In this document: piece after piece, positions 3,646 through 60,357 of the stretch
How the letters are laid out: every line of letters begins with the position of its first letter
Numbering within the stretch: the first letter of the stretch is position 1
From: a bacterium
Lineage (GTDB): Bacteria > Patescibacteriota > Minisyncoccia > Moranbacterales > UBA2206
Assembly (NCBI GenBank): GCA_030654225.1
Contig: JAURXY010000034.1
Span: 25,184 to 89,183 of the forward strand
Direction: 5' to 3'
DNA: 64,000 nucleotides
Position numbers and translations under genes: made by a program
The notes under the pieces: model-generated
What the model was told of the DNA's origin: nothing
The model's database searches: none
Seen by the model: the letters and a program-made list of their open reading frames with translations, nothing else

Positions 3646-3816
3646 TGTGGTAGAATAGAAAAAACAAAAGATTCCTTCTCTCCCTTTTGGAGAGATGTCG
3701 CGTACTCGCGACAGAGAGGGAAGAGTTAAATTAAAAATAATAAAATAATCTTAGTTTCTCCCTCATCCGCCCTTCGGGCACCTTCTCCCGAAGGGAGAAG
3801 GTGGAAATGAAAAATT

Positions 3817-4372: not shown

Positions 4373-5431
4373 ATGAAATTATTAGTCACTGGTGGTGCGG
4401 GGTTTATCGGTTCAAATTTCATTCACTATTGGATCGAAAAACATCCGCAAGATTTAATTGTCAATTTGGACGCCTTGACCTATGCCGGCAATTTGGAAAA
4501 TTTGAAATCCATTGAAAGCCCGCCTCGCGTCGACGAGCGATCGTCTTCGCGAGTCGAGGCGGGTAATCCGAATTATAAATTTGTCAAAGCTGATATTTCC
4601 GACAAGGAAAAAATCAACGAAATAATTTCCACTGAAAAACCAGATGCAATTGTGCACTACGCCGCTGAATCGCATGTTGATCGCTCAATTTTAGGACCAG
4701 AAGCTTTTGTTCGAACGAATGTTTTGGGCACGTTTAATTTATTAGAAGCAGCACGCCAAAATGGCAACATCCGCTTTCATCACGTTTCCACAGATGAGGT
4801 TTTTGGCTCACTAGGCCCAAATGACGCACCTTTCAATGAAACGACGCCTTATGACCCCAGAAGCCCCTATAGCGCTTCTAAAGCGTCTTCAGACCACTTA
4901 GTGCGAGCCTATTTTCACACTTTTGGCCTGCCAATTACTATCTCTAATTGTTCCAATAATTTTGGTCCATTTCAATTTCCAGAGAAACTAATTCCACTAT
5001 TTGTAACCAATCTGATCGAAGGCAAAAAAATTCCCCTTTATGGCGATGGAATGAATGTTCGCGATTGGCTCTATGTCGAAGATCACTCCGGCGCAATTGA
5101 TCTAATTTTGCAAAAAGGCAAGATTGGCGAAACTTATTGCGTTGGCGGAAACACGGAAAAAAACAATAAGGAAATTACTTATAAAATTTTGGAACTGATG
5201 GGTAAGGGCGAAGAGATGATTGAATTTGTAGCAGATCGAAAAGGACATGATTTGCGCTATTCAATTGATTTTTCCAAGATTCAGCACGAACTTGGCTGGA
5301 CGCCAAAAACTTCCTTTGAAGACGGAATGAAAAAAACTATCCAGTGGTACAAAGAAAATGAAAGTTGGTGGAAAGAAATAAAATCTGGCGAATACCAGAA
5401 TTACTACGAGAAAAATTATAAAGATAGATAA
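4373..5431 (+). CDS. rfbB: dTDP-glucose 4,6-dehydratase (SDR) with an in-frame 15-codon palindromic insertion
   Basis: 352 aa; 'LLVTGGAGFIGSNF' Rossmann motif, YxxxK and 'LDALTYAGNLENL'. Extra 'PPRVDERSSSRVEAG' is encoded by the GC-rich palindrome at 4519-4563. Confidence 0.9.
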   Translation: MKLLVTGGAGFIGSNFIHYWIEKHPQDLIVNLDALTYAGNLENLKSIESPPRVDERSSSRVEAGNPNYKFVKADISDKEKINEIISTEKPDAIVHYAAESHVDRSILGPEAFVRTNVLGTFNLLEAARQNGNIRFHHVSTDEVFGSLGPNDAPFNETTPYDPRSPYSASKASSDHLVRAYFHTFGLPITISNCSNNFGPFQFPEKLIPLFVTNLIEGKKIPLYGDGMNVRDWLYVEDHSGAIDLILQKGKIGETYCVGGNTEKNNKEITYKILELMGKGEEMIEFVADRKGHDLRYSIDFSKIQHELGWTPKTSFEDGMKKTIQWYKENESWWKEIKSGEYQNYYEKNYKDR

Positions 5432-9555: not shown

Positions 9556-10638
9556 TTAGGATAGAATTTCCTTTATTTCCTCTAAACTCTCCGCCATAAC
9601 TAATTTTCGGCGCAATTCTGAGGCTCCAGGGAAACCTTTGACATACCAACTCATATGCTTTCGAATTTCAAAAAGTCCTTGTTGACCCTTGTTTTTGTGG
9701 ATTAATTTTGCATGAAGAAGCATTATTTTCTTTACCCTGTTAAGTAAATTTTGCTCTGCAAAATTATTTTTCGTAATCGAAAAATACTTAACAGGGTGAA
9801 TTTTTTTAAAATCGTATTTTGCCCCCGTAGAGACGCCCCGACGGGGCGTCTCTACACAATTCAATAATTCTTTTATCTCCTCAAAAATCCACGGCTTACC
9901 CCAAGCGCCCCGGGCAATTCCAAGACCATCCAAAAGAGGATGGTCTTGCAAAATTTTCACGCCATCCTCAGCGGAATTTATCCCACCGTTCGCCAAAACG
10001 ATTTTTTCCGGAAACATTTTTTTGATTTTTTCAACAAGATTGAAATCTAGCGAACCAGAAAACCCACCTTCATATGTTCGACCATGAATCATAATGACCG
10101 AGTAGGGAAGATCAGCTGTGCTTTTGACAAAATCAAGGGCTGAAAATCCTAAAGCCGAGCTTTGAGAATTTTTTAAAAGCTCGGCTTTAGGATTTTCAAT
10201 ACCTGCTCGAATTTTTATAGACACCGGCAATTTGGTATTTTCACAAACAGCCGAAATAATTTCACGCGCCAATTTTTTTTGCATCATTAGCGCGCAACCC
10301 GAACCATGACCAAAAACTTTTTTGGCCGGACAACCAAAATTAATGTCAATTCCATCTGGCTTCACTATTTGCGAAATAATTTTAGTGGCCTTGGCAAAAT
10401 GCGCCGGGTCTTTCCCAAAAAGTTGCACCACGTATGGCCGTTCAGCTCTATTAAATTTTACTAATTCTAAAGTTTTTTGAGGTTTAAAAAATAAAGCGCT
10501 AACGCTTGCCATTTCCGAATATACCACATCCGCTCCATATCGCCGGCAAATTTGACGAAACGCACTGTCCGTTATGCCCGCCATCGGGGCTAGAGCCAGA
10601 ATTGGTTTTTTCAATTTTAACCAAAAATTTTTATTCAC
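9556..10638 (-). CDS. dus: tRNA-dihydrouridine synthase (probable GTG start) with an in-frame palindromic insertion
   Basis: 360 aa; 'LAPMAGITDSAFRQICRRYGADVVYSEM' plus FMN-binding TIM-barrel motifs. The 29-nt perfect palindrome at 9827-9855 encodes extra residues in 'ETPRRGVSTGA'. Confidence 0.9.
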   Translation of the reverse strand: MNKNFWLKLKKPILALAPMAGITDSAFRQICRRYGADVVYSEMASVSALFFKPQKTLELVKFNRAERPYVVQLFGKDPAHFAKATKIISQIVKPDGIDINFGCPAKKVFGHGSGCALMMQKKLAREIISAVCENTKLPVSIKIRAGIENPKAELLKNSQSSALGFSALDFVKSTADLPYSVIMIHGRTYEGGFSGSLDFNLVEKIKKMFPEKIVLANGGINSAEDGVKILQDHPLLDGLGIARGAWGKPWIFEEIKELLNCVETPRRGVSTGAKYDFKKIHPVKYFSITKNNFAEQNLLNRVKKIMLLHAKLIHKNKGQQGLFEIRKHMSWYVKGFPGASELRRKLVMAESLEEIKEILS

Positions 10639-13210: not shown

Positions 13211-13223
13211 AACTTTTTAATCT

Positions 13224-13294
13224 TGTCATCCTGAATTTATTTCAGGATCTTATTTTTTTATTTTAGAGATGCTGAAACGAGTTCAGCATGACAA
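13224..13294. repeat. Hairpin repeat element, family C ('tgtcatcctgaa...ttcaggatc' plus 'gatgctgaaac..gttcagcatgaca')
   Basis: Two adjacent hairpins with GTCAT/ATGAC ends. Related copies at 22246-22314, 29807-29833 and 30129-30217. Confidence 0.7.
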
Positions 13295-14679: not shown

Positions 14680-14722
14680 TTTTCTTGTTTGTGGTATATT
14701 AAAATTACTAAGACTTAATTAT

Positions 14723-14926
14723 ATGAAAACAGAAATCCTAATTATAATAATTGCCGTTGTTTGGACATTGCCTTGGAAAGGTTTTGCCCTTTGGAAATCA
14801 GCTCGCAAGGGGGATAGCATTTGGTTTACCATCCTTCTAATTGTGAATACTTTGGCTATTTTGGAAATTTTATATATTTTTATTTTTTCCGAAAGAAAAG
14901 TTGCTAACAGAATTCCCTCAAAATAA
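14723..14926 (+). CDS. Small hypothetical membrane protein
   Basis: 67 aa with two hydrophobic segments; no family assigned. Confidence 0.35.
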   Translation: MKTEILIIIIAVVWTLPWKGFALWKSARKGDSIWFTILLIVNTLAILEILYIFIFSERKVANRIPSK

Positions 14927-14929
14927 TTT

Positions 14930-15646
14930 ATGTATTGGATTTTTCTTATCATCTTCATAATAACGGTTCTTGTGCCTGACATCGTTCGCACAAATTTTGG
15001 TGTTATTTCAGAATCAAGGTTAGAAGAAATCTTGATTTTTTTTATGGGCGCAATGGCCTTTGCAATTTTCATAAAAAATGAACAGCAATTGATTTTTCAC
15101 AAAAAAGAAAAAGAGAAGGACAAGAAAAAAATTGAACAAACCGTCAAAGATTTGGTTGAGTCATACAGTTATATTGGAGAAGTAAATCGCAAGATGGATC
15201 TTTTGATGAACACCGCCCTTGGACTTTCGGATCGATCCGTGCTTAGCAAAGCTCATGAAAAAGAAACCTATCAGTCAATCGTGAGCGCCACCAGCTTTCT
15301 TTTGAAATCAGATTTTACCTCACTTCGTTTTGTCGATATGAAAAACATAAGAACTAAACAGGAATTTCGTTCGGAAAATAGCGGTCAGCCCATAAAAAAT
15401 AGTATGCTCGCTGAAATGAAAGATAATGTGAATGTGAAAAAACATGATGATTGTCTGATTATCTCTTCCAGTCAAAAAATAAATGACATCAAAGGTTATT
15501 TGATTATCTGTGGATTCGATGAAAAAGAAGAAAGCAACCCAAAAAACATCGAAATCCTCAAGGTCTTCGCCTCTCAAGCTCTTTTCCTATATTCATACAC
15601 CCACAACGAACCCAAAAACTGCCTGCCAAGCGAGAAGAAGAAATAA
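14930..15646 (+). CDS. Hypothetical membrane protein
   Basis: 238 aa; two N-terminal TM helices then a charged region; no family assigned. Confidence 0.5.
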   Translation: MYWIFLIIFIITVLVPDIVRTNFGVISESRLEEILIFFMGAMAFAIFIKNEQQLIFHKKEKEKDKKKIEQTVKDLVESYSYIGEVNRKMDLLMNTALGLSDRSVLSKAHEKETYQSIVSATSFLLKSDFTSLRFVDMKNIRTKQEFRSENSGQPIKNSMLAEMKDNVNVKKHDDCLIISSSQKINDIKGYLIICGFDEKEESNPKNIEILKVFASQALFLYSYTHNEPKNCLPSEKKK

Positions 15647-18180: not shown

Positions 18181-18327
18181 TGTCATCCTCGCACCCGCTT
18201 CGCGAGCATAAACTCCAGCGGGGATCCAGTATATAGACTAAGTTTATTGCGATAAAAATTATTTTGATACTAGATTCCCGTTTTCACTCGCCTCGCTGAA
18301 GCTTTGGCGAAGCGGGCGGGAATGACA
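18181..18327. mobile_element. MITE-like element, family A (TIR tgtcatcctcgc / gcgggaatgaca), copy 1
   Basis: 147 nt between fmt and def. Terminal inverted repeats; internal 'taagtttattgcgataaaaattatttt' shared with the copy at 18776-18872. Confidence 0.75.
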
Positions 18328-18328
18328 G

Positions 18329-18769
18329 CTATTTCTTGTCTATAAAAAGCATTCCGTTTAAATGATCAATCTCGTGTTGCAAGGCTCGCGAGAGAAGTCC
18401 TTCGGCTTTGATTTCAATTTTTTCTCCTTTTTTATCCAAGGCCTTCACGGTGACTTTTTTGTGTCTCTTGACTGGGATAAATTTTCCAGGAAAAGATAGA
18501 CAACCCTCTTCGCAAATTTCTTTTCCCCAAGATTTTCGAGCAATTTTCGGGTTGATTAGAATATGCGTTTTTCCATCTAATTTTATAATACAAAGTTGCA
18601 CTGATTGTCCCACTTGCGGAGCAGCCAAGCCCAAAGCATTGCCACTTTCTTCCATAGTCGCAATCATATCCAAAATCAAGTCTTTGATTTCTCGACTTTT
18701 TGGTTCTTTTATCTTCTTCGCTTTTTGACGAAGAATTTCATTAGGATAGGTTATTATTGGTAATATCAT
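18329..18769 (-). CDS. def: Peptide deformylase
   Basis: 146 aa; 'GLAAPQVG', 'EGCLSFPG' and 'HEIDHLNG' motifs. Confidence 0.95.
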   Translation of the reverse strand: MILPIITYPNEILRQKAKKIKEPKSREIKDLILDMIATMEESGNALGLAAPQVGQSVQLCIIKLDGKTHILINPKIARKSWGKEICEEGCLSFPGKFIPVKRHKKVTVKALDKKGEKIEIKAEGLLSRALQHEIDHLNGMLFIDKK

Positions 18770-18775
18770 ATTTTA

Positions 18776-18872
18776 TGTCATCTCCGCGTAGGCGGGGATC
18801 TAGTGTATAGATTAAGTTTATTGCGATAAAAATTATTTTTATGACTGGATTCCCGTTTTCACGGGAATGACA
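18776..18872. mobile_element. MITE-like element, family A, copy 2
   Basis: tgtcatctccgcgtaggcggggatc ... ggattcccgttttcacgggaatgaca. The two copies flank def. Confidence 0.75.
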
Positions 18873-18877
18873 ATGCT

Positions 18878-20902
18878 TTAAATAATTGAAATTGGATCTC
18901 GATCGATTATCCAACCTGATTTGAGTTTTCTAATTTCTTTTTCTAATTCAATTGGAATTTTATCTGGAAATTTAACAATCATTTGCTTTCGCCAGCGTCC
19001 TCTGATTTTTGAGAGCAGGGGAGTGTGCGGTTCAGATATTTTTATTCCTTTTGCTGATTTTAATATTTCAAAAACTGCCAGACTTTCTTTTTCAACTTTT
19101 TCAAAATTATAATCCTGAAAAACCAATTTGACAATTTTCCCATACGGCGGAAAATTCAAAGCTTTTCGTTCCTCAATTATCTTTTGAAAAAAACTTTGAA
19201 AATTATTTTCTCCGGCCAATTGAATAATTTTATTTTCCGGTTGATATGTTTGAATAACCACTTCTCCAGGAAAGCGCGCTCCAGGGCGATTCACTCTCCC
19301 GGCAAGCTGAGAGATTATTTGAAAGGCCTTTTCTTCAGCCGAAAAATCAGGAAATGACAAAAGATTATCTGCATCTATTATACCAACCAATGACACGCGA
19401 GGCAAATCCCAGCCCTTGGAAATCATCTGCGTTCCAATCAAAATATCCGCCTCACCTTTGGAAAAAGCATCATAAATTTTTTCATGAAAATTTTGTTCTT
19501 TTGAAGAGGCTGTGTCAGCCACAATTATTTTGGCCGAAGGAAACAAACTCAAAATTTCTTTTTCTACTTTTTGCGTTCCCAATCCAACGTTTTTGAAACT
19601 TATCCCGCCACATTTCTCGCATTTTGGAAAAATACTCGTCTTATAATTACAATGATTGCATTTATAGAATCCGCCTTTTTCATAAACAAGCGCCCGCTCA
19701 CACTCAGGACACTTGAGCACTGCTTTGCACGCTTCACAAATTGAAAAACTACTCATACCTTGGCGATTGATAAACAAGATTGATTGCTGTTTATTTTTTA
19801 GCGCATATTCAATTTCACCTTTTAATTTTCTTGATATGCAAGTATAGTTTCCTGCCTGCCGATGAGGCAGGTTGGTCCAGCGTTCTTTTTTCATGTCAAC
19901 GATGGTGGTGTTTGGTATTTTATATTTAGTGTCTAATATTTCAAGATGTGGCAATTCTAATAATTTCAAATCTTTGTTAATCGCACGATAATATGATTCG
20001 ATACTTGGCGTAGCTGAGCCACGAACGATTTTCGCTTTATGAATCTCAGCTAATTTTTCTGCCACCGTTCTAGCGTCGTAACGCGGATTCATATCCCACT
20101 GTTTGAAAGACATATCCTGTTCTTCATCAATCACAATAAGCCCGAGTTTTTTAAACGGCGCAAAAACCGCCATGCGAGTACCAATAACTATTTTTATTTT
20201 TCCTGATTGAATGCCTTGCCAAGTAGAAAAAATCTGTCCCTTGGAAATATTACTACTTAAAACCCCAATTTCTTCCGGCTTAAAATATGCACCATATCTT
20301 TCCATGGCCTGCGGAGTCAAAGTTTTTTCTGGGATAATAATCAGAAATTGAAAATTCTTATTTATTTTTCTTAATTCAATAATTGAATTTATATAAACCT
20401 CCGTCTTCCCCGATCCCGCCGGACCAAAAAGCAAGTAATTTGTAATTGGTAATTTGTAATTGGTAATTTTTTTGACAGCATCTTTTTGCTCTTTTGTTAA
20501 TACAATATTTCCTCCTCTCCCTTCGGGAGAGGATGTCCGAAGGACAGGAGAGGGAGCTTTGCGTGATTTCATACGCTTTGGGACAAAATTTTTCATCACT
20601 ACACCCAATGGAGAAATATAATAATCAGAAATAAATTTTGCCAATTCTATTTGGCTATCGGAGAGAAAATTTTCAACGATTATTTTTTCAACTTTTTTTA
20701 GTTCAATATTACCCAATCTTTCAAAATCCTGCCTCGTCCCCAAAACAATTCCTTCCACACTTCGATGAAAAAGGGGAATCGAGACCAAGGTTCCAGTTGA
20801 AATTTTGACATCTGACAAATAGGAAAAAGACTGATGGGAAGACATCGGAATTTTTGTTAGTGGAACAATGTCGATAATAAACTTCTGCTTTTTGTTTGCC
20901 AT
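18878..20902 (-). CDS. priA: Primosomal protein N' (PriA helicase) carrying two in-frame hairpin insertions
   Basis: 674 aa; Walker A 'GPAGSGKTEVY', DEEQ box and a Cys4 zinc finger (CEACKAVLKCPECE...CNHC). Palindromes at 19851-19871 and 20511-20556 lie in-frame. Confidence 0.9.
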   Translation of the reverse strand: MANKKQKFIIDIVPLTKIPMSSHQSFSYLSDVKISTGTLVSIPLFHRSVEGIVLGTRQDFERLGNIELKKVEKIIVENFLSDSQIELAKFISDYYISPLGVVMKNFVPKRMKSRKAPSPVLRTSSPEGRGGNIVLTKEQKDAVKKITNYKLPITNYLLFGPAGSGKTEVYINSIIELRKINKNFQFLIIIPEKTLTPQAMERYGAYFKPEEIGVLSSNISKGQIFSTWQGIQSGKIKIVIGTRMAVFAPFKKLGLIVIDEEQDMSFKQWDMNPRYDARTVAEKLAEIHKAKIVRGSATPSIESYYRAINKDLKLLELPHLEILDTKYKIPNTTIVDMKKERWTNLPHRQAGNYTCISRKLKGEIEYALKNKQQSILFINRQGMSSFSICEACKAVLKCPECERALVYEKGGFYKCNHCNYKTSIFPKCEKCGGISFKNVGLGTQKVEKEILSLFPSAKIIVADTASSKEQNFHEKIYDAFSKGEADILIGTQMISKGWDLPRVSLVGIIDADNLLSFPDFSAEEKAFQIISQLAGRVNRPGARFPGEVVIQTYQPENKIIQLAGENNFQSFFQKIIEERKALNFPPYGKIVKLVFQDYNFEKVEKESLAVFEILKSAKGIKISEPHTPLLSKIRGRWRKQMIVKFPDKIPIELEKEIRKLKSGWIIDRDPISII

Positions 20903-22236: not shown

Positions 22237-22245
22237 AATTAAAAT

Positions 22246-22314
22246 TGTCATACTGAACTTGTTTCAGTATCTAAAAAATTGCAAAGCAGATCCCGAAATA
22301 AATTCGGGATGACA
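22246..22314. repeat. Hairpin repeat element, family C
   Basis: tgtcatactgaacttgtttcagtatc ... gatcccgaaataaattcgggatgacaa. Confidence 0.65.
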
Positions 22315-23371: not shown

Positions 23372-24940
23372 ATGAACAAAATCAGAACTAGATTTGCGCC
23401 GTCGCCGACGGGATACTTGCATATTGGGGGTCTTCGGACTGCACTGTATGATTATTTATTCGCCAAAAAAAATGGTGGTGATTTTTTGTTGAAAATTGAA
23501 GATACTGATCGAAAAAGATTTGTTGAAGGTGCGGTGGAAAAATTAATAATTTCATTAGATTTTCTAGGATTGGAAAGAAATGAAGGAGTAATGTTAAACA
23601 ATAATACCAATGGTCAGGAATCAAAAAATTATCCCAGAGTTTTTGAAGTAGGCGAATATGGACCTTATATTCAATCAGAAAAATTAGAAATTTACAAAAA
23701 ACATGTTGATGAATTAGTGAAAAATGGCCATGCCTATTATTGTTTTTGCGAACCAAAAAGACTTGAGGAAATGAGATCTGAACAAACCGCCCAAAAACAA
23801 CCCCCTATTTATGATAGATTTTGTTTGCAAAATGTTAGCGAAGAAGAAATAAATAAAAATCTAAAAAATAATTGTCCCTATACTATTCGAATTAAAGTTC
23901 CGCACGACGAAATAATTGAAGTGGATGACGAAATCAGAGGACGCGTTAAATTTAATACTAATTTAGTCACCGATCAAATACTTTTGAAATCTGACGGCTT
24001 TCCCACTTATCATTTAGCTAGCATCATAGATGACCATGATATGCAAATCACACATGTTATTCGTGGCGAAGAATGGCTTCCGAGCATTCCAATTCATATT
24101 TTATTATATCGCTATTTCAATTGGGAAGCTCCGAAATTTGCTCACTTACCACTTCTTCTTAATCTAGACAAATCCAAACTTTCTAAGCGTCAGGGGGATG
24201 TGGCGGTGGAAGATTACATTAAAAACGGATATTTAAAAGAAGCTCTTATTAATTTTGTAGCCTTTTTAGGTTGGAATCCTGGGAAAGGAGAAACGCAAGA
24301 AATTTTCACGCTTGAAGAATTAGTGGAGAAATTTGATCTGACTCATGTTCACAAGGCGGGCGCAGTTTTTGACATCAAAAAATTAGATTGGATAAATTCA
24401 CAGTGGATCAAGAAACTTTCCATCGAAGAGTTATATCAAAAATCTTTGCCATTTCTTGAGGAAAAAGAATTTTATAAAAATGCTAGTGCAGAAAAAAAAT
24501 CCGAAGACTATATCAAAAAAATCCTTTCCATTGAACAGGACCGTCTCACAAATTTGTCAGAAGTGGGGGAGAGCAATCAGTTCTTTTTTAGGGATACAAA
24601 TTTTGACAAAGAACTTTTACGCTGGAAAGATATGAATGACGAAGACTTGAAAAAATCACTAGAAAAATCTCTCCGCGTTTTGGAAAATATAACGGACGAA
24701 AATTGGACGCGCGAAAATTTGGAAAAAATTCTGATGGAAAAGGCGGATGAAAAGCCTGCCTCGCCGGCTCGCCTCGCTGGAGCTATGGCGAAGCGGGCAG
24801 GCGGGAGGGGAGAGCTCCTCTGGCCACTGCGCGCCACGCTTACGGGAGAGAAAAAATCACCTTCACCATTTGAATGTGCGTGGGTGCTTGGGAAAGAAGA
24901 AACATTATCGAGATTAAAAAATACAATAGGCAAAATATAA
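23372..24940 (+). CDS. gltX: Glutamyl-tRNA synthetase with a GC-rich, MITE-derived in-frame insertion
   Basis: 522 aa; 'RFAPSPTGYLHIGG' and 'KLSKR' motifs. The 24751-24850 segment shares about 30 nt with the MITE family A arm. Confidence 0.9.
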   Translation: MNKIRTRFAPSPTGYLHIGGLRTALYDYLFAKKNGGDFLLKIEDTDRKRFVEGAVEKLIISLDFLGLERNEGVMLNNNTNGQESKNYPRVFEVGEYGPYIQSEKLEIYKKHVDELVKNGHAYYCFCEPKRLEEMRSEQTAQKQPPIYDRFCLQNVSEEEINKNLKNNCPYTIRIKVPHDEIIEVDDEIRGRVKFNTNLVTDQILLKSDGFPTYHLASIIDDHDMQITHVIRGEEWLPSIPIHILLYRYFNWEAPKFAHLPLLLNLDKSKLSKRQGDVAVEDYIKNGYLKEALINFVAFLGWNPGKGETQEIFTLEELVEKFDLTHVHKAGAVFDIKKLDWINSQWIKKLSIEELYQKSLPFLEEKEFYKNASAEKKSEDYIKKILSIEQDRLTNLSEVGESNQFFFRDTNFDKELLRWKDMNDEDLKKSLEKSLRVLENITDENWTRENLEKILMEKADEKPASPARLAGAMAKRAGGRGELLWPLRATLTGEKKSPSPFECAWVLGKEETLSRLKNTIGKI

Positions 24941-28013: not shown

Positions 28014-28092
28014 TGTCATTCCCGTGAAAACGGGAATCTAGTCTCAAATCACTAAGTTTCTACACTAGATTCCCGCCTACGCGGGAATGACA
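28014..28092. mobile_element. MITE-like element, family B (TIR tgtcattcccg / cgggaatgaca), copy 1
   Basis: tgtcattcccgtgaaaacgggaatctagtctcaaatcactaagtttctacactagattcccgcctacgcgggaatgaca; between iscS and iscR. Confidence 0.75.
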
Positions 28093-28582: not shown

Positions 28583-28662
28583 ATGTCATCCTCGCGAATG
28601 CGGGGATCCAGTCTCAAATCATTAATTTTCTACACTAGATTCCCGCATTCGCGGGAATGACA
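28583..28662. mobile_element. MITE-like element, family B, copy 2
   Basis: tgtcatcctcgcgaatgcggggatccagtctcaaatcattaattttctacactagattcccgcattcgcgggaatgaca. The two copies flank iscR. Confidence 0.75.
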
Positions 28663-29796: not shown

Positions 29797-29806
29797 TAAC
29801 CTCAGT

Positions 29807-29833
29807 TGTCATCCTGAACTTGTTTCAGGATCC
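29807..29833. repeat. Hairpin repeat element, family C
   Basis: tgtcatcctgaacttgtttcaggatcc, immediately upstream of the GIY-YIG ORF. Confidence 0.65.
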
Positions 29834-29843: not shown

Positions 29844-30152
29844 ATGAAACAATATTGTGTTTACATTATTACTAATAAACTAAATAAAGTTTTTTATATT
29901 GGATTTACTGGAAATTTACCAAAAAGAATTTACGAACATAAAAATAAATTAGTAAAAGGATTTTCTGAAAAATATAATTTAACAAAATTAGTTTATTTTG
30001 AGCAAACAACGGATGTTTATTCTGCTATCTCCAGAGAAAAACAACTAAAAAATTGGCACAGGGATTGGAAAATAAACCTGATAACTAAAAGTAATCCGGG
30101 TTGGATAGATTTGTATGACACATTATTAGATGCTGAAACAAGTTCAGCATGA
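29844..30152 (+). CDS. GIY-YIG nuclease-domain protein (stand-alone, about 100 aa)
   Basis: 'VYIITN...FYIGFTGNLPKRIYEHK' GIY-YIG motif. The ORF's 3' end overlaps the downstream hairpin element. Confidence 0.75.
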   Translation: MKQYCVYIITNKLNKVFYIGFTGNLPKRIYEHKNKLVKGFSEKYNLTKLVYFEQTTDVYSAISREKQLKNWHRDWKINLITKSNPGWIDLYDTLLDAETSSA

Positions 30153-30217
30153 CAGTCTTTTTTATCTTATCATCCTGAGTTTGTCTTTTTGTCATCCTGA
30201 ATTTATTTCAGGATCTC
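30129..30217. repeat. Hairpin repeat cluster, family C
   Basis: gatgctgaaacaagttcagcatgaca ... tcatcctgagtttgtc ... tgtcatcctgaatttatttcaggatc. Confidence 0.7.
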
Positions 30218-31708: not shown

Positions 31709-31746
31709 AGTGTTTTAATTTTGTTCGTAGATTCGCATATAATTCG

Positions 31747-31790
31747 CCCGCCTCGCGTCGACGAGCAATCGTCTTGCGAGTCGAGGCGGG
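31747..31790. repeat. GC-rich palindromic element, second copy of the rfbB insert
   Basis: cccgcctcgcgtcgacgagcaatcgtcttgcgagtcgaggcggg, nearly identical to 4519-4563. Confidence 0.8.
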
Positions 31791-31808
31791 TAGTTTCGCA
31801 TCGGTTAA

Positions 31809-38198: not shown

Positions 38199-39359
38199 TC
38201 AATGACTCATCTGCAAAAAAATTTCTAGCAATTTTTCCGCAGTTTTTTGCCAGGAAAATTTTTCAGCTTGCAACTTTCCATTTTTCGACAAACTATCTCG
38301 CACCATCTCATTGGTCATTATTTCCTTGATTTTTTGGGTCAACTCTCCGGGAATTTCTGGTTTGAAATATAGCGTTGCGTTATCTGCAATTTCTCTGTGT
38401 GGTGGAATATCGGAAACTATGGTTGGCACACCTAGCGACATCGCTTCGATAATTGGCATACCAAAACCTTCATAAAATGAAGGGAACACAAAAATATCCG
38501 CACCTTTGATTATCCCTGCCTTATCTTCTTCATCAATATACCCAGGAAAGAAAACGTCTTCAATTAAATTATTTTTTTTAGTTACTTCATCTATTAATTT
38601 GTCATAATTATACCCCTTACCTCCGGCGATAACTAATTTCAAAGAATTAAGTTTTAACTTTAAGTTGAGTTCGGTTTTTAACAGTGCCACTGCTTCGATA
38701 AGCGCTGGTATATTTTTTCTTGGTTGTAATGTGCCGATATATAGAATGTATCTTTCTGGAAGATTATATTTTATCTTGATTGCTTTTATTTTTTCCTCGG
38801 ATATATCTTGCGTCGAAAAATCCTCTGACACCGCATTATGAAACCAATCAACTTTTTTTGGATCAGTTTTATAATATTTAATTATTTCGTCTTGAGTGAA
38901 TTGGGACACCGCAATTATCTTGTCCGCACGCTTGAGACTTTTTGGAATCAAAGTTTTTAGAAATAACAAATCCCAAAATTTGATAAATTGCGGATAAAAA
39001 TTGAAAGAAATGTCATGAATAATTGTGACGATTTTTATTTTTTTCGGCACGAACCATGGTGTGATATATTGCGTGAGATAAACATCGACTGGTTTTTTTC
39101 GCAAATACATTGGAAGCGTCCAAAAATTCCAACTAAATTTGTTTTTCGTTGGAAGTGAAATTATTTCAAAATTTTTCTGATTATCTATTCCAAGACTTAC
39201 TCCAGTATTCTGTAATACTGTAGTATCAGTTATGTCGGTGAATAATTTATATTCATTCTCACTATCTATTTTAGCTAAATTTTTAGTCAAATTGAAAAAC
39301 ACCGCTTCGCTGCCAGTTTGTTTTTTGCCTATAAGTCGAATGTCAATACCTATTTTCAT
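38199..39359 (-). CDS. Glycosyltransferase family 4
   Basis: 'FPSFYEGFGMPIIEAMSLGVPTIVSD' EX7E motif. Start placed at the internal Met (MKIGIDIR) to avoid overlapping the upstream ORF. Confidence 0.75.
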   Translation of the reverse strand: MKIGIDIRLIGKKQTGSEAVFFNLTKNLAKIDSENEYKLFTDITDTTVLQNTGVSLGIDNQKNFEIISLPTKNKFSWNFWTLPMYLRKKPVDVYLTQYITPWFVPKKIKIVTIIHDISFNFYPQFIKFWDLLFLKTLIPKSLKRADKIIAVSQFTQDEIIKYYKTDPKKVDWFHNAVSEDFSTQDISEEKIKAIKIKYNLPERYILYIGTLQPRKNIPALIEAVALLKTELNLKLKLNSLKLVIAGGKGYNYDKLIDEVTKKNNLIEDVFFPGYIDEEDKAGIIKGADIFVFPSFYEGFGMPIIEAMSLGVPTIVSDIPPHREIADNATLYFKPEIPGELTQKIKEIMTNEMVRDSLSKNGKLQAEKFSWQKTAEKLLEIFLQMSH

Positions 39360-40957
39360 TTTTTTATTTGTGCTATTCCCAGCCAGAGCCAAAAAAATCC
39401 CAAAAATATTCCAGCATTAAAAAAATTGGGAACAATGATCGCAAACCAAGAAATTATTAAAAATAAACTAATAATTATTTGCGAATCATTTTGTGCTGCG
39501 TAATATTCTTTTATCGCTCTACCTAGTATATACGATAGCATAATCACAAAGGACGCAAAACCTAGAATTCCACTGCCAAGCCAAATTTCCAAAAATATAT
39601 TGGAAGAATTGAAGTTCATGCCTCGACCGTCTTCTCCTAAAATTTTCCCAATACTCCCCCAACCTATTCCTAAAATCGGGTGATTTTTTATCTCCTGCCA
39701 AGATCTTTGATAAATAAAGCTTCGAATTGAAATATTTGGATCTTTTCTAAAAATCTCCGTTACTAAATTTCCCTGATTTTTTTCTATTTCAATTTCTTCC
39801 AAGTTAATATGTCGACAACTATATTTTTCCAATTCAGAAATATTTTCAATTTCTTTTGGTAGGGAACGCAAATTTGCGTTCCCTACATTACAGGAAACGG
39901 TGATTTTCTGCATTCCTGATCCGGTTGACTGAACACGATTAAATAATTGGAAATTAGTTAGATGAAAAATATAAACCAGACCAACAGCAACAAAAAGCGC
40001 CGGGACTATAATCAGCTTTATTTTAATAGTTTCCCTCCATTGCCAATTTTTGGGATGGAATTTTAAATTTGTAAAAATAGTGAAAAGAAAAATAAATGTC
40101 ACGGCAAATGCACCGAGCCAAGCGCTTCTGCTTACAGTTAGGATAAGTAAAACATATGAAATAGTAAGTAATAAAAATAAACCGCCCAACAGAAGCTTAG
40201 CTTCGGGAGCTCCCGAAGCTAAGCTTCTGTCTGAGTCTTCGAAGTAATATATCAAAACATAAATTAAACTTATAACTAGCACTATAAAAATTCCCAACCA
40301 ATCCGCCTCCGAAAAAGTCGCATTTGGTCGTCCGGGCATCGTTTCAAAACTATTTAGCCCTCGCAAGAACCAAATATTTTGCCAAATTCCATAAAACACA
40401 ACGACCAAAGAAGAGCTAAGAAAAAATGGCACTACTTTTTTCAAGTCCTCGATATTTTGAATATAATTTCGCACTAAAAAATATAGCGCGGAAAATGTGG
40501 CCAGGATTATCGCCAATTTTAAACTTAAAATTTTATTCGACGCATTTATAATACTAAAAAGTCCGCCGATATTTATTATGACAATTAACCAATCATACCA
40601 TTCCAATTTAACTAATTTGAAATTCAGTTTTCCGGAAAGCAATCTGATTATTATGGCAGTAATTGTGAGTGCGCCGATAAATTGATATGGCCTGATTGCA
40701 ATTCCAAGCTCCAATGGCGCCAGATTGATGTTTTCTAGCGCAATCGTTCCAACAAAAAACAGAAACGCCCACCCAGGACGGTATAGCGCCAAAAACAAAG
40801 TCAGAATTGCAAAGAAAACAAAATCCCCTATTCGCAAAGGAATAATCCCTAAATTATTAAAAATAATCAAAAATAAAACTAAAGCCACATTCACCAAAAT
40901 CAACCAGCTCTTTGGTTTGTTGAGGTTATTAATTATTTTTTCAAAAAATAAATTCAT
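39356..40957 (-). CDS. O-antigen ligase/polymerase-like polytopic membrane protein (Wzy/WaaL family) with two in-frame palindromic insertions
   Basis: 533 aa with at least 10 TM helices and a large periplasmic loop. Palindromes at 39860-39887 and 40189-40238 are in-frame. Confidence 0.55.
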   Translation of the reverse strand: MNLFFEKIINNLNKPKSWLILVNVALVLFLIIFNNLGIIPLRIGDFVFFAILTLFLALYRPGWAFLFFVGTIALENINLAPLELGIAIRPYQFIGALTITAIIIRLLSGKLNFKLVKLEWYDWLIVIINIGGLFSIINASNKILSLKLAIILATFSALYFLVRNYIQNIEDLKKVVPFFLSSSLVVVFYGIWQNIWFLRGLNSFETMPGRPNATFSEADWLGIFIVLVISLIYVLIYYFEDSDRSLASGAPEAKLLLGGLFLLLTISYVLLILTVSRSAWLGAFAVTFIFLFTIFTNLKFHPKNWQWRETIKIKLIIVPALFVAVGLVYIFHLTNFQLFNRVQSTGSGMQKITVSCNVGNANLRSLPKEIENISELEKYSCRHINLEEIEIEKNQGNLVTEIFRKDPNISIRSFIYQRSWQEIKNHPILGIGWGSIGKILGEDGRGMNFNSSNIFLEIWLGSGILGFASFVIMLSYILGRAIKEYYAAQNDSQIIISLFLIISWFAIIVPNFFNAGIFLGFFWLWLGIAQIKK

Positions 40958-42160
40958 TTACATTTCTTCAATTATATTCAAAATCTTCTCACTAAATTTT
41001 TCCCACGAAAATTGCTTGGCTCGTTCTTGACCTCTGTTTTTTAGTTGTTCTCGCAAGTCATGATTAGTCAAAACATTCTTCAAAACCATCGCGATATCAG
41101 TTATGTCATCAGGATTACAATATAGCACACTATCTCCACCAACTTCTGGCAGTGAGGAAACTTTTGAAGTGATGACAGGCGTGCCAACATTCATTGCTTC
41201 CAGAATTTGCATGCCGAAACCTTCATAATGTGATGGATAGACAAACATAACAGCCTCACTAAACAGTGCTGGCAAATCTTTTTGCGGAACTTCACCCAAA
41301 AGAATCACGTGTTTCGTTAAATTTAATTCTTTAAGAATTCTTTCTATCGGCGTTGCCAGGCTCAAACTTTCCGGCAAAACTTTCCCGTATATCGCTAACT
41401 TCGGAAAATTTGGCAAGAAATTTTCTTTTTTGTTTCTTTCCAAAAGCAACTTATATGCCCGCACCACTCCTTCGACATTTTTCCGCACTTCATATCCCCC
41501 ACCAGCCAAAACATATCCGGGATTTATTTTGTATTTCTTCAAAATATTCGCATGTCCAGCATTCGTAGCGCCGGTTCGCGAAGCGAATAACTCATCTACA
41601 TCTATATAATTAGTAGTAATTTTGTCTGCGCCTATATTTAAGTGTTCAATTAGATCTTTTTCTGTCCTTTTGGAAACAGCAACAATTTTGTCCGCCTTTT
41701 TTATCCCATATTCTGTTAATTTCCAATACAATTTCTTTCTAAAGTTATCCAGATATTTGGGAAACAATTTTGGAATAATATCATGCACCAGCATAATATG
41801 CTTCACTTCCTTATATGGTTGAATGCCCGCCTGCCGGCGAGGCAGGGAAGTAGGACATTGGTACATACTAACAAAAACATCGCAACCGTCTTTTTTGACA
41901 AGGCGCGGCAAAAGGATTTTTTCCCACCAAATTTTTCGAATCAAATCATCGCGCTTATAAACTGGTAGGAATATTTTCTTGCTAAAATTATCAGGAAGCT
42001 TAAAATCTTTTGGAATATCTTCCTCCAAATACAAAACAAATTCAAAATCATTCTGCTTATATCTTACCAACATTTTCAAAAAATTGGTTGTCACTTGCCC
42101 GATGCCCGTATGAGGCTTTCGAAGATAACTTGCATTGATTCCTACTTTTTTCTTTTTCAT
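40958..42160 (-). CDS. Glycosyltransferase family 4 with an in-frame hairpin insertion
   Basis: 400 aa; 'YPSHYEGFGMQILEAMNVGTPVI'. The hairpin at 41826-41848 encodes 'LPRRQAG'. Confidence 0.75.
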   Translation of the reverse strand: MKKKKVGINASYLRKPHTGIGQVTTNFLKMLVRYKQNDFEFVLYLEEDIPKDFKLPDNFSKKIFLPVYKRDDLIRKIWWEKILLPRLVKKDGCDVFVSMYQCPTSLPRRQAGIQPYKEVKHIMLVHDIIPKLFPKYLDNFRKKLYWKLTEYGIKKADKIVAVSKRTEKDLIEHLNIGADKITTNYIDVDELFASRTGATNAGHANILKKYKINPGYVLAGGGYEVRKNVEGVVRAYKLLLERNKKENFLPNFPKLAIYGKVLPESLSLATPIERILKELNLTKHVILLGEVPQKDLPALFSEAVMFVYPSHYEGFGMQILEAMNVGTPVITSKVSSLPEVGGDSVLYCNPDDITDIAMVLKNVLTNHDLREQLKNRGQERAKQFSWEKFSEKILNIIEEM

Positions 42161-42280
42161 ATTTATATTGTAAAGCCAAAATCAAATTATGTCATCTGCT
42201 GAAATTATGCATTGCCAGATAATCACTTCTGAGCTATAATCAAGTTATAATAAAAGCTAATTTTTAAGCCTATAATACTT

Positions 42281-42511
42281 ATGTTTAGTATTGTTAAATT
42301 TGCCATTTGGATTGTCCTTTTTTTGGCCGCAACCTATTTTGTGCTTAAATTTTTCGGTTATGATGTTAATCGGGAATATTTTTCCGGCACCAGAAAGCAA
42401 TGTGAAGAAAGATTAAAAGAATGCACTAATGATATTTTTCATCAAGGCGTCGATAACGCCAAATGCGATTTTAATTGCGTCGACCCGAAACTAATAATTA
42501 AAAAGAACTAA
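42281..42511 (+). CDS. Small membrane-anchored Cys-containing protein
   Basis: 76 aa; N-terminal TM then four Cys (CEERLKEC...CDFNC). Lies immediately upstream of, and 1 nt from, the GT2 gene. Confidence 0.4.
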   Translation: MFSIVKFAIWIVLFLAATYFVLKFFGYDVNREYFSGTRKQCEERLKECTNDIFHQGVDNAKCDFNCVDPKLIIKKN

Positions 42512-42512
42512 T

Positions 42513-43496
42513 ATGAAATTAATCATCAACATTCCAGCCTACAACGAAGAAAAGGATCTTGGAAAAACAATTGAGCGAATCAAAGAAAGTCTTTCTAATG
42601 ATTTCTATTCTAATGAGGGCGCGCGTATTACTGAAAAATTAATTCAAGTAGTGGATGACGGTTCAAGTGATAATACTGCTGAAGTTGCTAGAAACAGCGG
42701 AGCAGATATAGTAATCTCCTACAAACCCAACAGACGCCTCGCCTATTCTTTCAAACAAGCAGTGGAAAGCTCCTTAGAAAAAGGCGCTGATTTTATGGTC
42801 AACATCGACGCTGACGGACAATTTGATCCTAACGATATTCCAAAGCTTCTTTTGCCAATACTGAATGGTGAAGCTGATATGGTGATTGCTAATCGTTTTG
42901 GAAGTCACAAAGCTAAAAACATTCCATGGGTGCGAAGTTTCTTTAATCGCTTTGCCGCTTCGGTTATTAGTTTTTTCCTAAATTGTAAAACCGATGACCT
43001 CACTTGTGGATTTCGTGCTCACTCTCGAGAAACCTTGCTCCGTTTTAATCTAACTAATATTCATTTCACCTACACTCAGGATACTATTATTGACGCCATT
43101 GGAAAAAATTTGAAACTAAAATGGGTGCCGATTACCGTCACTTATTTTGATAATCGCGAAGCCAAAATCACTAAGTCTATTTTTAAGTATATCAATGACT
43201 CTGGAAAAATAATTTTGAAAGCTGTTCGGGATGTCAGACCTTTGAAATTTTTCGGCTGGCCGGGAATATTTCTAATGTCAATCGGAGTTATTGGCTTTCT
43301 TATTTTCCTTTTTAATTACATTCAAGATTTGAAAATCGCCCCCTATCTTCATTATATAGTTTTTTCTGCTATCTCTTTACTCCTTGGAATTCAGCTGGTT
43401 GTTTTCGCCTTGATTGCTGATATGATCAAATCTGCCCGCCAACTCACCGAAGAACTTTTCTACCAATGGAAGAAAGATAAATACAATAAAAATTAA
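42513..43496 (+). CDS. GT2 polyprenyl-phosphate sugar synthase (DPM1/GtrB/ArnC-like) with C-terminal TM helices
   Basis: 327 aa; 'INIPAYNEEKDL', 'VVDDGSSDNT' and 'NIDADGQFD' motifs. Two C-terminal TM helices as in GtrB. Confidence 0.75.
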   Translation: MKLIINIPAYNEEKDLGKTIERIKESLSNDFYSNEGARITEKLIQVVDDGSSDNTAEVARNSGADIVISYKPNRRLAYSFKQAVESSLEKGADFMVNIDADGQFDPNDIPKLLLPILNGEADMVIANRFGSHKAKNIPWVRSFFNRFAASVISFFLNCKTDDLTCGFRAHSRETLLRFNLTNIHFTYTQDTIIDAIGKNLKLKWVPITVTYFDNREAKITKSIFKYINDSGKIILKAVRDVRPLKFFGWPGIFLMSIGVIGFLIFLFNYIQDLKIAPYLHYIVFSAISLLLGIQLVVFALIADMIKSARQLTEELFYQWKKDKYNKN

Positions 43497-43499
43497 TTC

Positions 43500-44618
43500 A
43501 TGAAAATTCTTTTTATCTCCCATTCCTATCCTCCAATTCTTGGTGGAGTGGAAAGTCAAAATTACAATTTAGCCCAGGGGCTTTCAAAAATTGCCCAAGT
43601 TAAGATTATCGCTAATGGCCGTGGTAAATGGTGGCTGCCTGTTTTTGTGCCGATAACATTCATACGGGCATTTTTTTTGATGATGAATTATGACGCCTGT
43701 CTCGTAGGGAATGGCGTTTTAGCTCCCCTAGCTTATGCTCTAAAACTTTTTCATCCCAAAAAGAAGTTTTTTTCAATTATCCATGCGCTTGATATAACCT
43801 TTTGTCATAAAAAAGGAATTCTACCAAAAATCTATAGCCTTACAAATATTCCTTCTATAAAAAAAATGGATAAACTTTTCATGGTGGGAAATTTTGCCGT
43901 CGAAGAAGCTATAAAAATTGGAGTGCCTAAGGAAAATTGCGTTTTTATTCCTAATGGAGTTTTTATTGAAAATTTCAGAAAAGAATTTTCTAGGCAAGAC
44001 TTGTCCGCTCTTTGGGGTGCAGACACCACCGAAAAAAAAGTTATTTTGCGCCTTGGCAGATTTGTTCCTCACAAAGGTACAGCTTGGTTTATAAAAAATA
44101 TAATGCCAAGACTCCCGGAAAATGTAATACTACTTGCCGTAGGAGGTCGCGTTGATAAAAATACCCCTGGCGATCCGGATAATTTTTCCGATTGCGAGAA
44201 AGAAATAAAAGAAAACAATTTAGAAAACAGAGTGAAACTTATCCCTAACATTCCACAAAAAGATTTGGAGATTTTGCTAAACACTGCTGATTTGGTAGTT
44301 TCTCCTAATATTCATTATAAAAGTTCCTCAGAAGGTTTTGGCATCAACGCTATTGAAGCTGCAGCTTGTGAAAGAGTAGTTATCGCTTCAAATATGCAAG
44401 GTTTGGCTGACGCAATCAAGGATGGCAAAAATGGTTTTCTAGTTGAAAGCGAAAACATAGATCAATGGGTCAAAAAAATCAACGCTATTTTTTCCGCCGG
44501 ACCGGAATTCGCCAAGAACTTTGGAATAATGGCTGGAAAATATGTGCAGGAAAATTTCACTTGGGAAAAAATTTCGAGGAAGTATTTAGAAGAGATGGAG
44601 AAAATAAGTAGCAAATAG
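43500..44618 (+). CDS. Glycosyltransferase family 4
   Basis: 372 aa; 'SEGFGINAIEAAACERVVIAS' motif. Confidence 0.7.
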   Translation: MKILFISHSYPPILGGVESQNYNLAQGLSKIAQVKIIANGRGKWWLPVFVPITFIRAFFLMMNYDACLVGNGVLAPLAYALKLFHPKKKFFSIIHALDITFCHKKGILPKIYSLTNIPSIKKMDKLFMVGNFAVEEAIKIGVPKENCVFIPNGVFIENFRKEFSRQDLSALWGADTTEKKVILRLGRFVPHKGTAWFIKNIMPRLPENVILLAVGGRVDKNTPGDPDNFSDCEKEIKENNLENRVKLIPNIPQKDLEILLNTADLVVSPNIHYKSSSEGFGINAIEAAACERVVIASNMQGLADAIKDGKNGFLVESENIDQWVKKINAIFSAGPEFAKNFGIMAGKYVQENFTWEKISRKYLEEMEKISSK

Positions 44619-44636
44619 AAAATATAAAGCAATAAA

Positions 44637-46966: not shown

Positions 46967-48081
46967 AAAAGATACTTCTAGTAACGAGGCCAATTGCCCC
47001 GCCGTGGGACGAAGGTTCAAAAAATTTCGCCTATTACCTAGCAAAAAATCTAGCAGGTTTTGAAATTAATTTAATGACTAAAGGAATTTTGTCCGGACTA
47101 TCTGATAATGTTCACCAGCATTCGGTTTATTCAACTTCAGAAATTCGCGATTTCAATTTTTCACAAAAGCTTCGCGCGCTTCTTTTCCAATTCAAAACCA
47201 AAGGCAAGTTCGATATCAATCACTATTTTTTCACTCCAACAAAACTCAACTCCTTCCTGATTAAGCATTTTTTCAAATCATCCAAAACTAAAACTATTCA
47301 AACTGTCGCTTCTCTTCGTGATGACTTGTGGTCGTCGGATGATATTCGAAAATTGATGTTTGCAGATCTCATCATCACCTATTCTGATTATGCCAAGAAC
47401 AAATTAAATTCACTTGGATTTCAAAATGTCAAAAGGGTTTATCCAGGAATTGATCTGGAAAAATATCAACTACAAGAAAGAAACTTGGAGCTTATGCAAG
47501 AAAAAAACATTTCGCCAACGGACTTTGTGATAAATTTCACTGGCGAGTATGTGCGCCTTGGTGCGATTGATTTAGTGATTGACAGTTTTATCGAAATTTC
47601 CAAAAAAATTCCCGAAGCCAAACTCACTCTAGCAGTTAGAATCAAAAACGAAAAAGACGCTCAGAAAAAAGAAGAGGTTATGGAAAAGATCAAAAAAAGT
47701 AATCTTCTGGAAAAAGTTTCTTTTTTTGATAATGGTAAATATGATATGCCAGAAGTTTATAATCTTTGCGACATTAGTCTTTTCCCAGTACAAAATATGC
47801 ACGGAAAATTTGATATCCCTCTCGCTGTTATCGAAACGATGGCCTGTGAAAAACCAGTCATCTTAACAGATTTGGAAATTCTAAAAGAATTGGGAAATAA
47901 TAATAACTCTGTTATAATTGAGAAAGACAATCTAAAACAATTGACTGACGCAATTTTTGATTTATACCAAGACACAGAAAAAAGAAAAATGCTCGGGAAA
48001 AATGCTAGAAAGTTTTGTGAGGAAAATTTCGACATAAAAAATATAGCTAGGGCTTATGAAAAAATATATGAACAATTATAA
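46963..48081 (+). CDS. GT-B fold glycosyltransferase (GT4-like, divergent)
   Basis: 372 aa; C-terminal 'FPVQNMHGKFDIPLAVIETMACEKPVILTDL' resembles an EX7E region. Confidence 0.55.
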   Translation: MKKILLVTRPIAPPWDEGSKNFAYYLAKNLAGFEINLMTKGILSGLSDNVHQHSVYSTSEIRDFNFSQKLRALLFQFKTKGKFDINHYFFTPTKLNSFLIKHFFKSSKTKTIQTVASLRDDLWSSDDIRKLMFADLIITYSDYAKNKLNSLGFQNVKRVYPGIDLEKYQLQERNLELMQEKNISPTDFVINFTGEYVRLGAIDLVIDSFIEISKKIPEAKLTLAVRIKNEKDAQKKEEVMEKIKKSNLLEKVSFFDNGKYDMPEVYNLCDISLFPVQNMHGKFDIPLAVIETMACEKPVILTDLEILKELGNNNNSVIIEKDNLKQLTDAIFDLYQDTEKRKMLGKNARKFCEENFDIKNIARAYEKIYEQL

Positions 48082-55048: not shown

Positions 55049-55095
55049 AATTTGCTATTTTAGTTTAAGCCAAAAATTATAATTTGGCAAAAAAA

Positions 55096-56721: not shown

Positions 56722-56723
56722 AT

Positions 56724-58382: not shown

Positions 58383-58464
58383 AAATATACTATCTTTACA
58401 ATAAGCCTATTTTTAATTATATTATATACAGATAGATTGTCAAAGTTTAATCTCAATAAAAATT

Positions 58465-60342: not shown

Positions 60343-60357
60343 ATCTTGCTTTGTTTT

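Follow-up and report, generated by a model that had tools for sequence, protein, structure and literature searches.

Selfish palindromes that sit in frame within genes are textbook knowledge for Rickettsia and for mitochondria. The Rickettsia palindromic elements (RPEs) are non-coding palindromic repeats found in frame in unrelated housekeeping genes, where they are translated, are tolerated at positions that suit the fold of the protein, and differ in presence from one relative to the next (PMC10969869). Short GC-rich hairpins have likewise invaded AT-rich mitochondrial genomes, as the GC clusters, double-hairpin elements and repetitive hairpin-forming elements (RHEs) of fungi and sponges; most of these lie between genes, but some fall in the variable portions of genes for proteins and rRNAs; they stay in the transcripts, and multi-hairpin composites occur (PMC2800124). 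In Coxiella, QMITE2, a miniature inverted-repeat transposable element (MITE), has a palindromic tip that varies between taxa and 7-11-nt direct repeats, and occurs in more than one class (PMC5896051). Here we describe a 51-nt insert in gltX, the gene for glutamate--tRNA ligase (GluRS), in a stretch of 64,000 nt (assembly GCA_030654225.1, contig JAURXY010000034.1, positions 25,184 to 89,183; the window, below). We consider it probable that this insert is a selfish palindromic mini-element, recently inserted in frame into the gltX gene of an AT-rich Candidatus Moranbacteria genome, and that it is tolerated and translated.

The RPEs are the closest behavioural parallel and are comparable in several respects: relative to its orthologs the gltX insert is an in-frame insertion, it can fold as a hairpin, and it lies in a predicted surface loop; and its sequences are repeated, the 21-mer within it in priA, in a glycosyltransferase gene and between genes of a syntenic relative (L003), and the 51-mer in the opposite orientation in a sister genome (L035). 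Compared by description, RPEs are about 100-150 bp long and occur in Rickettsia only (PMC10969869), whereas the modules here are 21-51 nt long; unlike RPEs, they are also far GC-richer than their AT-rich host, are nested in loops, and include one sub-module whose stems are identical across phyla. The mitochondrial GC hairpins are organellar, whereas the host here is a free-standing bacterial genome, and the recursive loop insertion and cross-phyla spread seen here are not described for them in the literature we searched. Bacterial MITEs (the TGTCAT...ATGACA family; QMITE1/QMITE2) are small and non-autonomous, with inverted termini, variable presence, and sometimes overlap with open reading frames (ORFs), but the gltX insert is a bare 51-nt hairpin without MITE termini, AT-rich core, or detectable target-site duplication. 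The RAYT-mobilised repetitive extragenic palindromic (REP) sequences and bacterial interspersed mosaic elements (BIMEs) consist of hairpin repeats 20-40 nt long, alone or in composites, as do the modules here; REPs, however, are extragenic and have a GTAG-type head, which these modules lack, and a Pfam scan of 30 window ORFs gave no RAYT/Y1 transposase. Bypass elements (T4 gene 60 and the mitochondrial byps) resemble the insert as short structured inserts, of mobile origin, in essential genes, but they break the frame and need take-off and landing codons, whereas the gltX insert is open and in frame. The elements here thus differ from the known systems in their very small size, recursive loop nesting, host in the candidate phyla radiation (CPR), and identical stems across phyla; our search of the literature by sequence and topic, whose coverage was incomplete, found no description of in-frame palindromic elements in CPR.

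The gltX gene (23372-24940, forward strand) was taken from the ORF list and encodes a protein of 522 aa with matches to Pfam PF00749 and PF19269. Its product is 100% identical to a GluRS in the databases that comes from a metagenome-assembled genome (MAG); the named relatives nearest to it are from Candidatus Moranbacteria. The GluRS motifs are intact (HIGH-type HIGG at residue 17, and KMSKS-type KLSKR at residue 269), and every invariant column of the family is unaltered. The window has an overall GC content of 34.7% with a few sharp GC-rich islands, and one of these, reaching 70% GC, lies inside the gltX ORF at 24736-24857. We aligned the 120 best GluRS homologs, and measured the insert at the DNA level against L003, the syntenic contig of protein P0002, which aligns to window positions 14317-35169 at ∼80-93% nucleotide identity. 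The insert occupies 24755-24805 (forward strand; codons 462-478; peptide PASPARLAGAMAKRAGG) and has 76% GC throughout. The closest homologs (P0002-P0005, 85-89% identical) read ...AGDK|RGELLWPLR..., where the window reads ...ADEK[PASPARLAGAMAKRAGG]RGELLWPLR...; relative to L003 the insertion is exactly 51 nt, and the ORF runs on to the invariant C-terminal residues. The insert is not ancestral because these closest relatives lack it, and from the sequence comparison it appears to be a recent in-frame insertion. An earlier note on this DNA had put the insert at ∼100 nt; by comparison with L003 it is 51 nt, and the remainder of the GC-rich stretch (24806-24857, forward strand; RGELLWPLRATLTGEKK; RGELLWPLRATLTGE) lies outside it and is ancestral GluRS coding sequence, kept in DNA and protein in L003, L001, L004, and 120 of the 120 homologs, and GC-rich in L003 too.

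The gltX insert is one tiny GC-rich hairpin nested within another. An outer module of 21 nt is divided into a 5′ part (24755-24767, forward strand; CCTGCCTCGCCGG) and a 3′ part (24798-24805, forward strand; CAGGCGGG), and the loop of the outer module holds, on its 3′ side, an inner hairpin module of 30 nt (24768-24797, forward strand; CTCGCCTCGCTGGAGCTATGGCGAAGCGGG). Excising 24768-24797 leaves the 21-mer CCTGCCTCGCCGGCAGGCGGG, which is identical to uninterrupted copies elsewhere: one at 41826-41846 (reverse strand) in the ORF of a GT4 glycosyltransferase (40958-42160), where it reads LPRRQAG, and an intergenic one at L003 8013-8033. Inside priA, a variant 21-nt module (CCTGCCTCATCGGCAGGCAGG; 19851-19871, reverse strand) reads LPHRQAG and is a 21-nt insertion relative to the priA of L003. 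A second copy of the 30-nt module is found at 18287-18316 (forward strand), in the loop of the right terminal hairpin of a MITE (ATTCCCG-TTTTCA-[30 nt]-CGGGAAT); it matches the inner module at 28 of 30 positions (29 of 31 with the next base, C), and both differences are located in the 30-mer's own 8-nt loop. The whole insert folds as one long imperfect hairpin (RNA, -35.6 kcal/mol, z -2.5; DNA, -16.4, z -1.3). An intrinsic terminator, which would have a run of T after the hairpin and stand at the end of a gene, was considered and rejected: the hairpin and the AGGGGAGAGC that follows it lie inside the ORF, 135 nt upstream of the stop codon. Rfam covariance models gave no match at 24700-24860.

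The closest relative of the gltX insert is a 51-nt composite in L035, a contig of the sister MAG Candidatus Moranbacteria RIFOXYA12_FULL_35_19 that is syntenic with window positions 38308-44804. This composite is 48/51 identical to the insert and lies near residue 30 in the ortholog of the glycosyltransferase 40958-42160, in frame and in the opposite coding orientation, where it reads PPARFAKALARRAGEAG. The window's glycosyltransferase is without the composite, and the GluRS of L035's MAG (P0090) is without the gltX insert; with presence and absence thus at different loci in sister genomes, the composite behaves as a unit.

Two side observations concern the same glycosyltransferase. At ∼3690-3800 of L035 there is an in-frame TGTCAT...ATGACA MITE of ∼100 nt where the window has the 21-mer (41804-41848), so this one site holds different elements in the two genomes. 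In addition, the 21-mer together with its flanks, 47 nt in all (...CATTCAACCATATA[AT]GGAAG), shows 96% identity between window positions 41806-41852, where it is coding, and L003 8007-8053, where it is intergenic and adjoins a Trp-repressor-like gene missing from the window; the mobile unit here may be longer than 21 nt.

The gltX site is a hot spot, occupied by other hairpins in further Moranbacteria. GC hairpins are found at the identical codon boundary in five of the 120 GluRS homologs: the window's own (51 nt), P0006 on L001 (21 nt, PASPAGG), P0024 on L004 (36 nt, PARNATHSVAGG), P0013 (PTRNATHSVAGG), and P0087 (PARNAPRIGAGG). A metagenome scan for the site, using a narrow pattern, gave 4 GluRS among 47 matches; in one gltX gene (L144), a 36-nt hairpin has a further 36 nt in its loop and reads PARNAT[PARQPDGSHGGG]HSVAGG. 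Across lineages the site is thus seen with 0, 21, 36, 51, or 72 nt, each length divisible by three. In a neighbour-joining tree computed with the insert masked, the five carriers are dispersed; repeated targeting of the site, recombination carrying one allele from lineage to lineage, or numerous exact losses could each explain this. Nesting recurs outside gltX too: in L180, the ortholog of an arm of a second MITE family (MITE-B; window 30187-30216) has in its loop a 22-nt GC hairpin that is missing in the window, and a 16-nt palindrome occupies a similar arm loop in L184. In gltX, the MITE arm, L144, and L180, the extra piece lies on the 3′ side of the loop or where the loop meets the 3′ stem. 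The GC hairpins that lie within genes of the window are all in frame (gltX, priA at two sites, an rfbB-like gene, dus, and the glycosyltransferase).

The best-placed alternative, which we nevertheless regard as unlikely, is stepwise growth, in which the 21-nt hairpin came first and the 30-mer later entered its loop at gltX itself, the scattered carriers descending from one old insertion that was spread by recombination or lost repeatedly. It is favored by the 21-nt-only state at the same codon boundary in L001, L002, and L154, by the second series at that site (36 nt in L004, then 36+36 nt in L144), and by the outer ends CC[CT]GCC...GCAGGCGG, which are common to all carriers. However, the immediate relatives of the window's GluRS have an empty site and not a 21-mer, a different gene of the sister genome holds the 51-nt composite in full, as a unit, and the scatter of the five carriers in the tree also argues against this history. 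We lean towards a 51-nt composite that arrived as a unit or converted a resident 21-mer.

The inner module is widespread. We scanned public genomes, one per species, for the pattern CTCGCCTCGCT-N4-12-GGCGAAGCGGG, and found the 30-mer stems in at least 119 genome stretches (120 copies) across many phyla. Most of the listed matches are in genomes of 30-50% GC, from many Patescibacteria classes and Saccharibacteria; the 30-mer is also found in MAGs labelled Gammaproteobacteria, Lentimicrobiaceae, and WOR-3, and on three scaffolds of cultured Chelativorans isolates. By our estimate, chance would give less than one match at uniform composition and far fewer at low GC; a few matches in high-GC genomes could be due to chance. 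Among the copies listed, the loop is 8 nt long in 84 of 120 (consensus NNAGCTNN); 15 lie inside CCTGCC.../...GGCAGG hairpins, with seven more matching one side, three lie clearly inside arm-type hairpins (ATTCCCG.../...CGGGAAT), with up to six more matching one side, and the other 89 are in other contexts. Of the 120, 63 lie in open frames of at least 150 codons, and each of the six possible frames is represented. Inverted repeats of at least 8 nt flank the 30-mer in 13 of the 119 matches listed (0.5% in controls), an enrichment that indicates nesting. Direct repeats of at least 8 nt flank it in 10 of the 119 (0.7% in controls), and may be target-site duplications or tandem heptamers. A relaxed search of the fetched loci returned only 8 copies with stem changes, too few for covariation.

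Several observations were made on individual copies of the 30-mer. Direct repeats of 7-13 nt flank the 30-mer or composite in L099, L060, L118, L078, L082, L019, and L116; they are often tandem-heptamer-like, for example (CATTCGT)n, (TTTTGAC)n, and (TCAGTCG)n, with target-site duplication or replication slippage as alternative origins. In other phyla, members of the 30-mer family also occur beside tRNA genes: in L073 (5216-5280) inside a partial tRNA-Glu duplicate upstream of the intact gene, and in L039 (4404-4500) just downstream of an intact tRNA-Ile, beside a partial tRNA fragment. Both look like what remains of integration sites. An interrupted functional tRNA gene would have spoken for removal from the RNA, but in neither case is one interrupted, and both were rejected as such cases. 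A phage vector into CPR was also considered and set aside, since viral contigs gave only 8 stretches, all of 61-71% GC, on few related contigs.

The similarity that first drew attention to gltX is with a member of the MITE family that we call A, defined by terminal inverted repeats (TGTCAT[CT]C...G[AG]GAATGACA), an ATC[CT]AGT box, and an AT-rich central core. Its ends read TGTCAT[CT]C-hairpin-G[AG]ATC[CT]AGT ... ACTAGATTCCCG-loop-CGGGAATGACA, with the AT-rich core between the terminal hairpins. The copy in question (18181-18327, 147 nt, TGTCAT...ATGACA termini) lies between fmt and def and has both terminal-hairpin loops enlarged, the right one by the 30-mer described above and the left one by a diverged version of it. 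A sister copy of ∼97 nt (18776-18873), between def and priA, ends in ...GGGAATGACA and served as the empty-loop reference, since its right terminal hairpin is ATTCCCG-TTTTCA-CGGGAAT, without the 30-mer; two further copies (28014-28092 and 28584-28662) are also without it. The 30-mer is thus present in one of four MITE A copies, in the right-arm loop, and is not part of the MITE core, because the sister copies lack it. Both def-flanking copies are missing from L003.

That gltX resembles the right arm of the MITE at 18181-18327, as the earlier note had it, is well supported: gltX 24768-24798 (CTCGCCTCGCTGGAGCTATGGCGAAGCGGGC) and 18287-18317 are identical at 29 of 31 positions with two mismatches, blastn-short gives an E of ∼1e-7, and none of 100 dinucleotide-preserving shuffles gave two matches, with none expected by chance. 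The extent of the resemblance was overstated: the shared segment is 31 nt and not ∼100 nt, with divergence outside it, and a count of 3-4 differences would require a 4-nt gap. The match also opens an alternative account, that a fragment of the def-flanking MITE arm was copied into gltX and exapted there, and this account could draw on the fact that TGTCAT...ATGACA MITEs do sit in frame in genes, as the ∼100-nt one in the L035 glycosyltransferase does. We regard it as largely refuted and now very improbable. The gltX insert was checked for MITE A features, and 24755-24805 lacks the TGTCAT/ATGACA termini, the ATC[CT]AGT box, and an AT-rich core; the match is confined to the nested 30-mer, which three other MITE A copies lack; the flanks of the 30-mer in gltX belong to the 21-nt CCTGCC module; a composite identical at 48 of 51 positions exists elsewhere; and only the three public copies mentioned above are clearly in MITE-arm hairpins. 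Since the 30-mer is extra to one MITE arm and gltX contains no MITE parts, descent from MITE arm to gltX is unsupported: gltX and the def-side MITE share a sub-module, and neither derives from the other. The observation made in the earlier note is therefore partly confirmed, and its interpretation partly supported, in that DNA of a repeat family was indeed inserted in frame into gltX, while its origin in the MITE arm does not hold.

MITE A gave rise to further observations. The copy between def and priA, taken as 18761-18886, has a weak Rfam match to WsnRNA46 (Wolbachia sRNA 46), which scores 33 bits (E 7.5e-4) where the gathering score is 65; TGTCAT-type relatives may exist in Wolbachia. At the positions corresponding to the intergenic copies 28014-28092 and 28584-28662, L003 has unrelated GC hairpins (∼14690-14730 and ∼15205-15235; e.g., ACCTGCCTCATCGGCAGACAAG); small elements turn over quickly at such fixed intergenic spots.

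As the earlier note stated, the segment is in frame within the GluRS ORF, in the C-terminal anticodon-binding region, where it reads ...PASPARLAGAMAKRAGGRGELLWPLRATL.... An AlphaFold2 model of the protein (46 homologs; mean pLDDT 88, pTM 0.86) predicts residues 459-479 as coil between two helices (447-458 and 480-491), and pLDDT falls below 50 only at residues 463-477 and 270-273. HMMER alignment to solved GluRS structures misaligned the insert region. The native loop at this site is longer in 17 of the 120 homologs, so the site tolerates variation in length. On this model the insert would be a disordered loop of 17 residues, rich in Pro, Ala, Gly, and Arg, in the anticodon-binding domain, and most likely neutral or slightly deleterious. 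The term "exapted" is not borne out; the predicted coil fits a tolerated passenger sequence.

An adaptive insert, that is, a new basic loop that alters tRNA recognition or binds a partner, would be in keeping with the three Arg and one Lys of the insert, with its position in the anticodon-binding domain, with the inserts at the same site in several lineages, and with the longer native loops of other homologs. Yet the peptides are wholly different among lineages (PASPAGG, PARNATHSVAGG, PASPARLAGAMAKRAGG) and are set by the resident hairpin, and the same DNA is read elsewhere in other frames and in the other orientation; a peptide that varies with hairpin, frame, and orientation argues against a selected function. 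The loop is, moreover, predicted to be disordered, and the closest relatives manage without it. An adaptive role thus seems to us very doubtful.

It is less likely still, to the point of being hard to credit, that the insert is not translated, being removed from the mRNA or bypassed by the ribosome in the manner of T4 gene 60 and the mitochondrial byp elements. Bypassed GC-rich mobile hairpins are known from yeast mitochondria, and the mRNA hairpin at gltX is very stable, with the -35.6 kcal/mol given above. But all intragenic hairpins seen here keep the frame and contain no stop codon, which would be unneeded if they were skipped; the preserved frame fits ordinary translation and purifying selection, and argues against removal or bypass. 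The insert also lacks a matching pair of take-off and landing codons, and the putative take-off site is not followed by a stop codon; and the GC hairpins in genes of fungal and yeast mitochondria reportedly stay in the transcripts (PMC2800124). Least probable of all is chance similarity of GC-rich low-complexity sequence or a chimeric assembly: the exact protein is found on one contig only, and GC-rich sequences fold and match each other more readily than average, but the shuffles and E value given above, an insert exactly in frame with conserved residues on both sides, and independent assemblies with related inserts at the same site argue against it.

We therefore favor a selfish palindromic mini-element in gltX, and propose that the modules would form a family of tiny selfish palindromes that prefer the loops of existing hairpins and also land in genes, the surviving copies being those that keep the frame and fall in tolerant surface loops. 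Two routes of movement may be envisaged. In the first, structure-specific nicking or recombination, acting in trans, would open hairpin loops; in the second, short-homology conversion would take place between hairpins with similar stems, the longer-tipped copy acting as the donor, and at gltX this could have used the 13 + 8 nt of flanking identity with an L035-type composite.

Several points weigh against a mobile and translated element. We looked for a target-site duplication in the flanks of the gltX insert and saw none, and since direct repeats flank other copies of the 30-mer but not this one, no uniform mechanism is evident. The search for a trans-acting enzyme gave none: Pfam matched no transposase in any of 30 scanned ORFs of the window. 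The fold energies of the hairpin only modestly beat those of shuffled GC-rich sequence, and the exact insert is backed by a single assembled contig. Translation is deduced from the preserved reading frame, and a role in tRNA contact is conceivable, the insert containing three Arg and one Lys. Among the Pfam labels of the L003 genes there is likewise no transposase, and a comparison of the empty sites of gltX and priA made no common target motif evident.

A lead for the first route is found in the MITE-B family. A GIY-YIG nuclease ORF of 102 aa (29844-30152, in the segment 29797-30236) lies between a MITE-B left arm (29806-29833) and right arm (30128-30154), and a solo left arm (30187-30216) follows this unit; the whole segment is missing in L003. 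The short MITE-B copies at 13223-13293 and 22244-22314 resemble products of internal deletion; the GIY-YIG ORF may thus be their autonomous partner. A second GIY-YIG subfamily, in other metagenomes (L184-L189 with P0166, L180-L183 with P0122), is flanked by arms of the type TGTCATCC.../...GCATGACA, and the arm loops in L180 and L184 carry nested GC palindromes that are missing from the window ortholog. As a more speculative possibility, which we put forward tentatively, the 21-, 30-, and 36-nt hairpins might be undescribed ultra-small mobile modules that spread among bacterial phyla and insert recursively into existing hairpins, on the 3′ side of the loop, also within essential genes, possibly driven by a structure-specific nuclease such as the GIY-YIG protein. 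If so, hairpin loops would generally serve as targets for integration, and CPR proteins would steadily acquire new loop peptides from them.

The graded series of 0, 21, 36, 51, and 72 nt in an essential synthetase amounts to a natural experiment in the gain of loops from non-coding DNA, and the identical 30-nt stems in distant phyla, together with the recurrent loop nesting, point to an uncharacterised mobility mechanism. In practical terms, such hairpins inflate protein lengths and create spurious low-complexity peptides in CPR annotations, and they probably break assemblies.

Further GC-rich hairpins in the window are found at 4512-4574, 9811-9865, 20516-20556, 31743-31796, and 3756-3810. 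Three of them are in frame inside genes: 4512-4574 in an rfbB-like dehydratase gene (PPRVDERSSSRVEAG), 9811-9865 in dus (VETPRRGVST), and 20516-20556 in priA (APSPVLRTSSPEGRGG). The dus hairpin is a GTAG-headed palindrome. Positions 4518-4562 are nearly identical to the intergenic 31747-31790, and 3758-3798 is the inverted partner of the priA copy. Elsewhere in the window, an RtcB gene is located at 48056-49570, and the region 51643-62253 contains PMT/PMT_2-type glycosyltransferases (four tandem paralogs on the reverse strand and at least two on the forward strand), which belong to a large cluster of glycosyltransferase, Wzy, and flippase genes.

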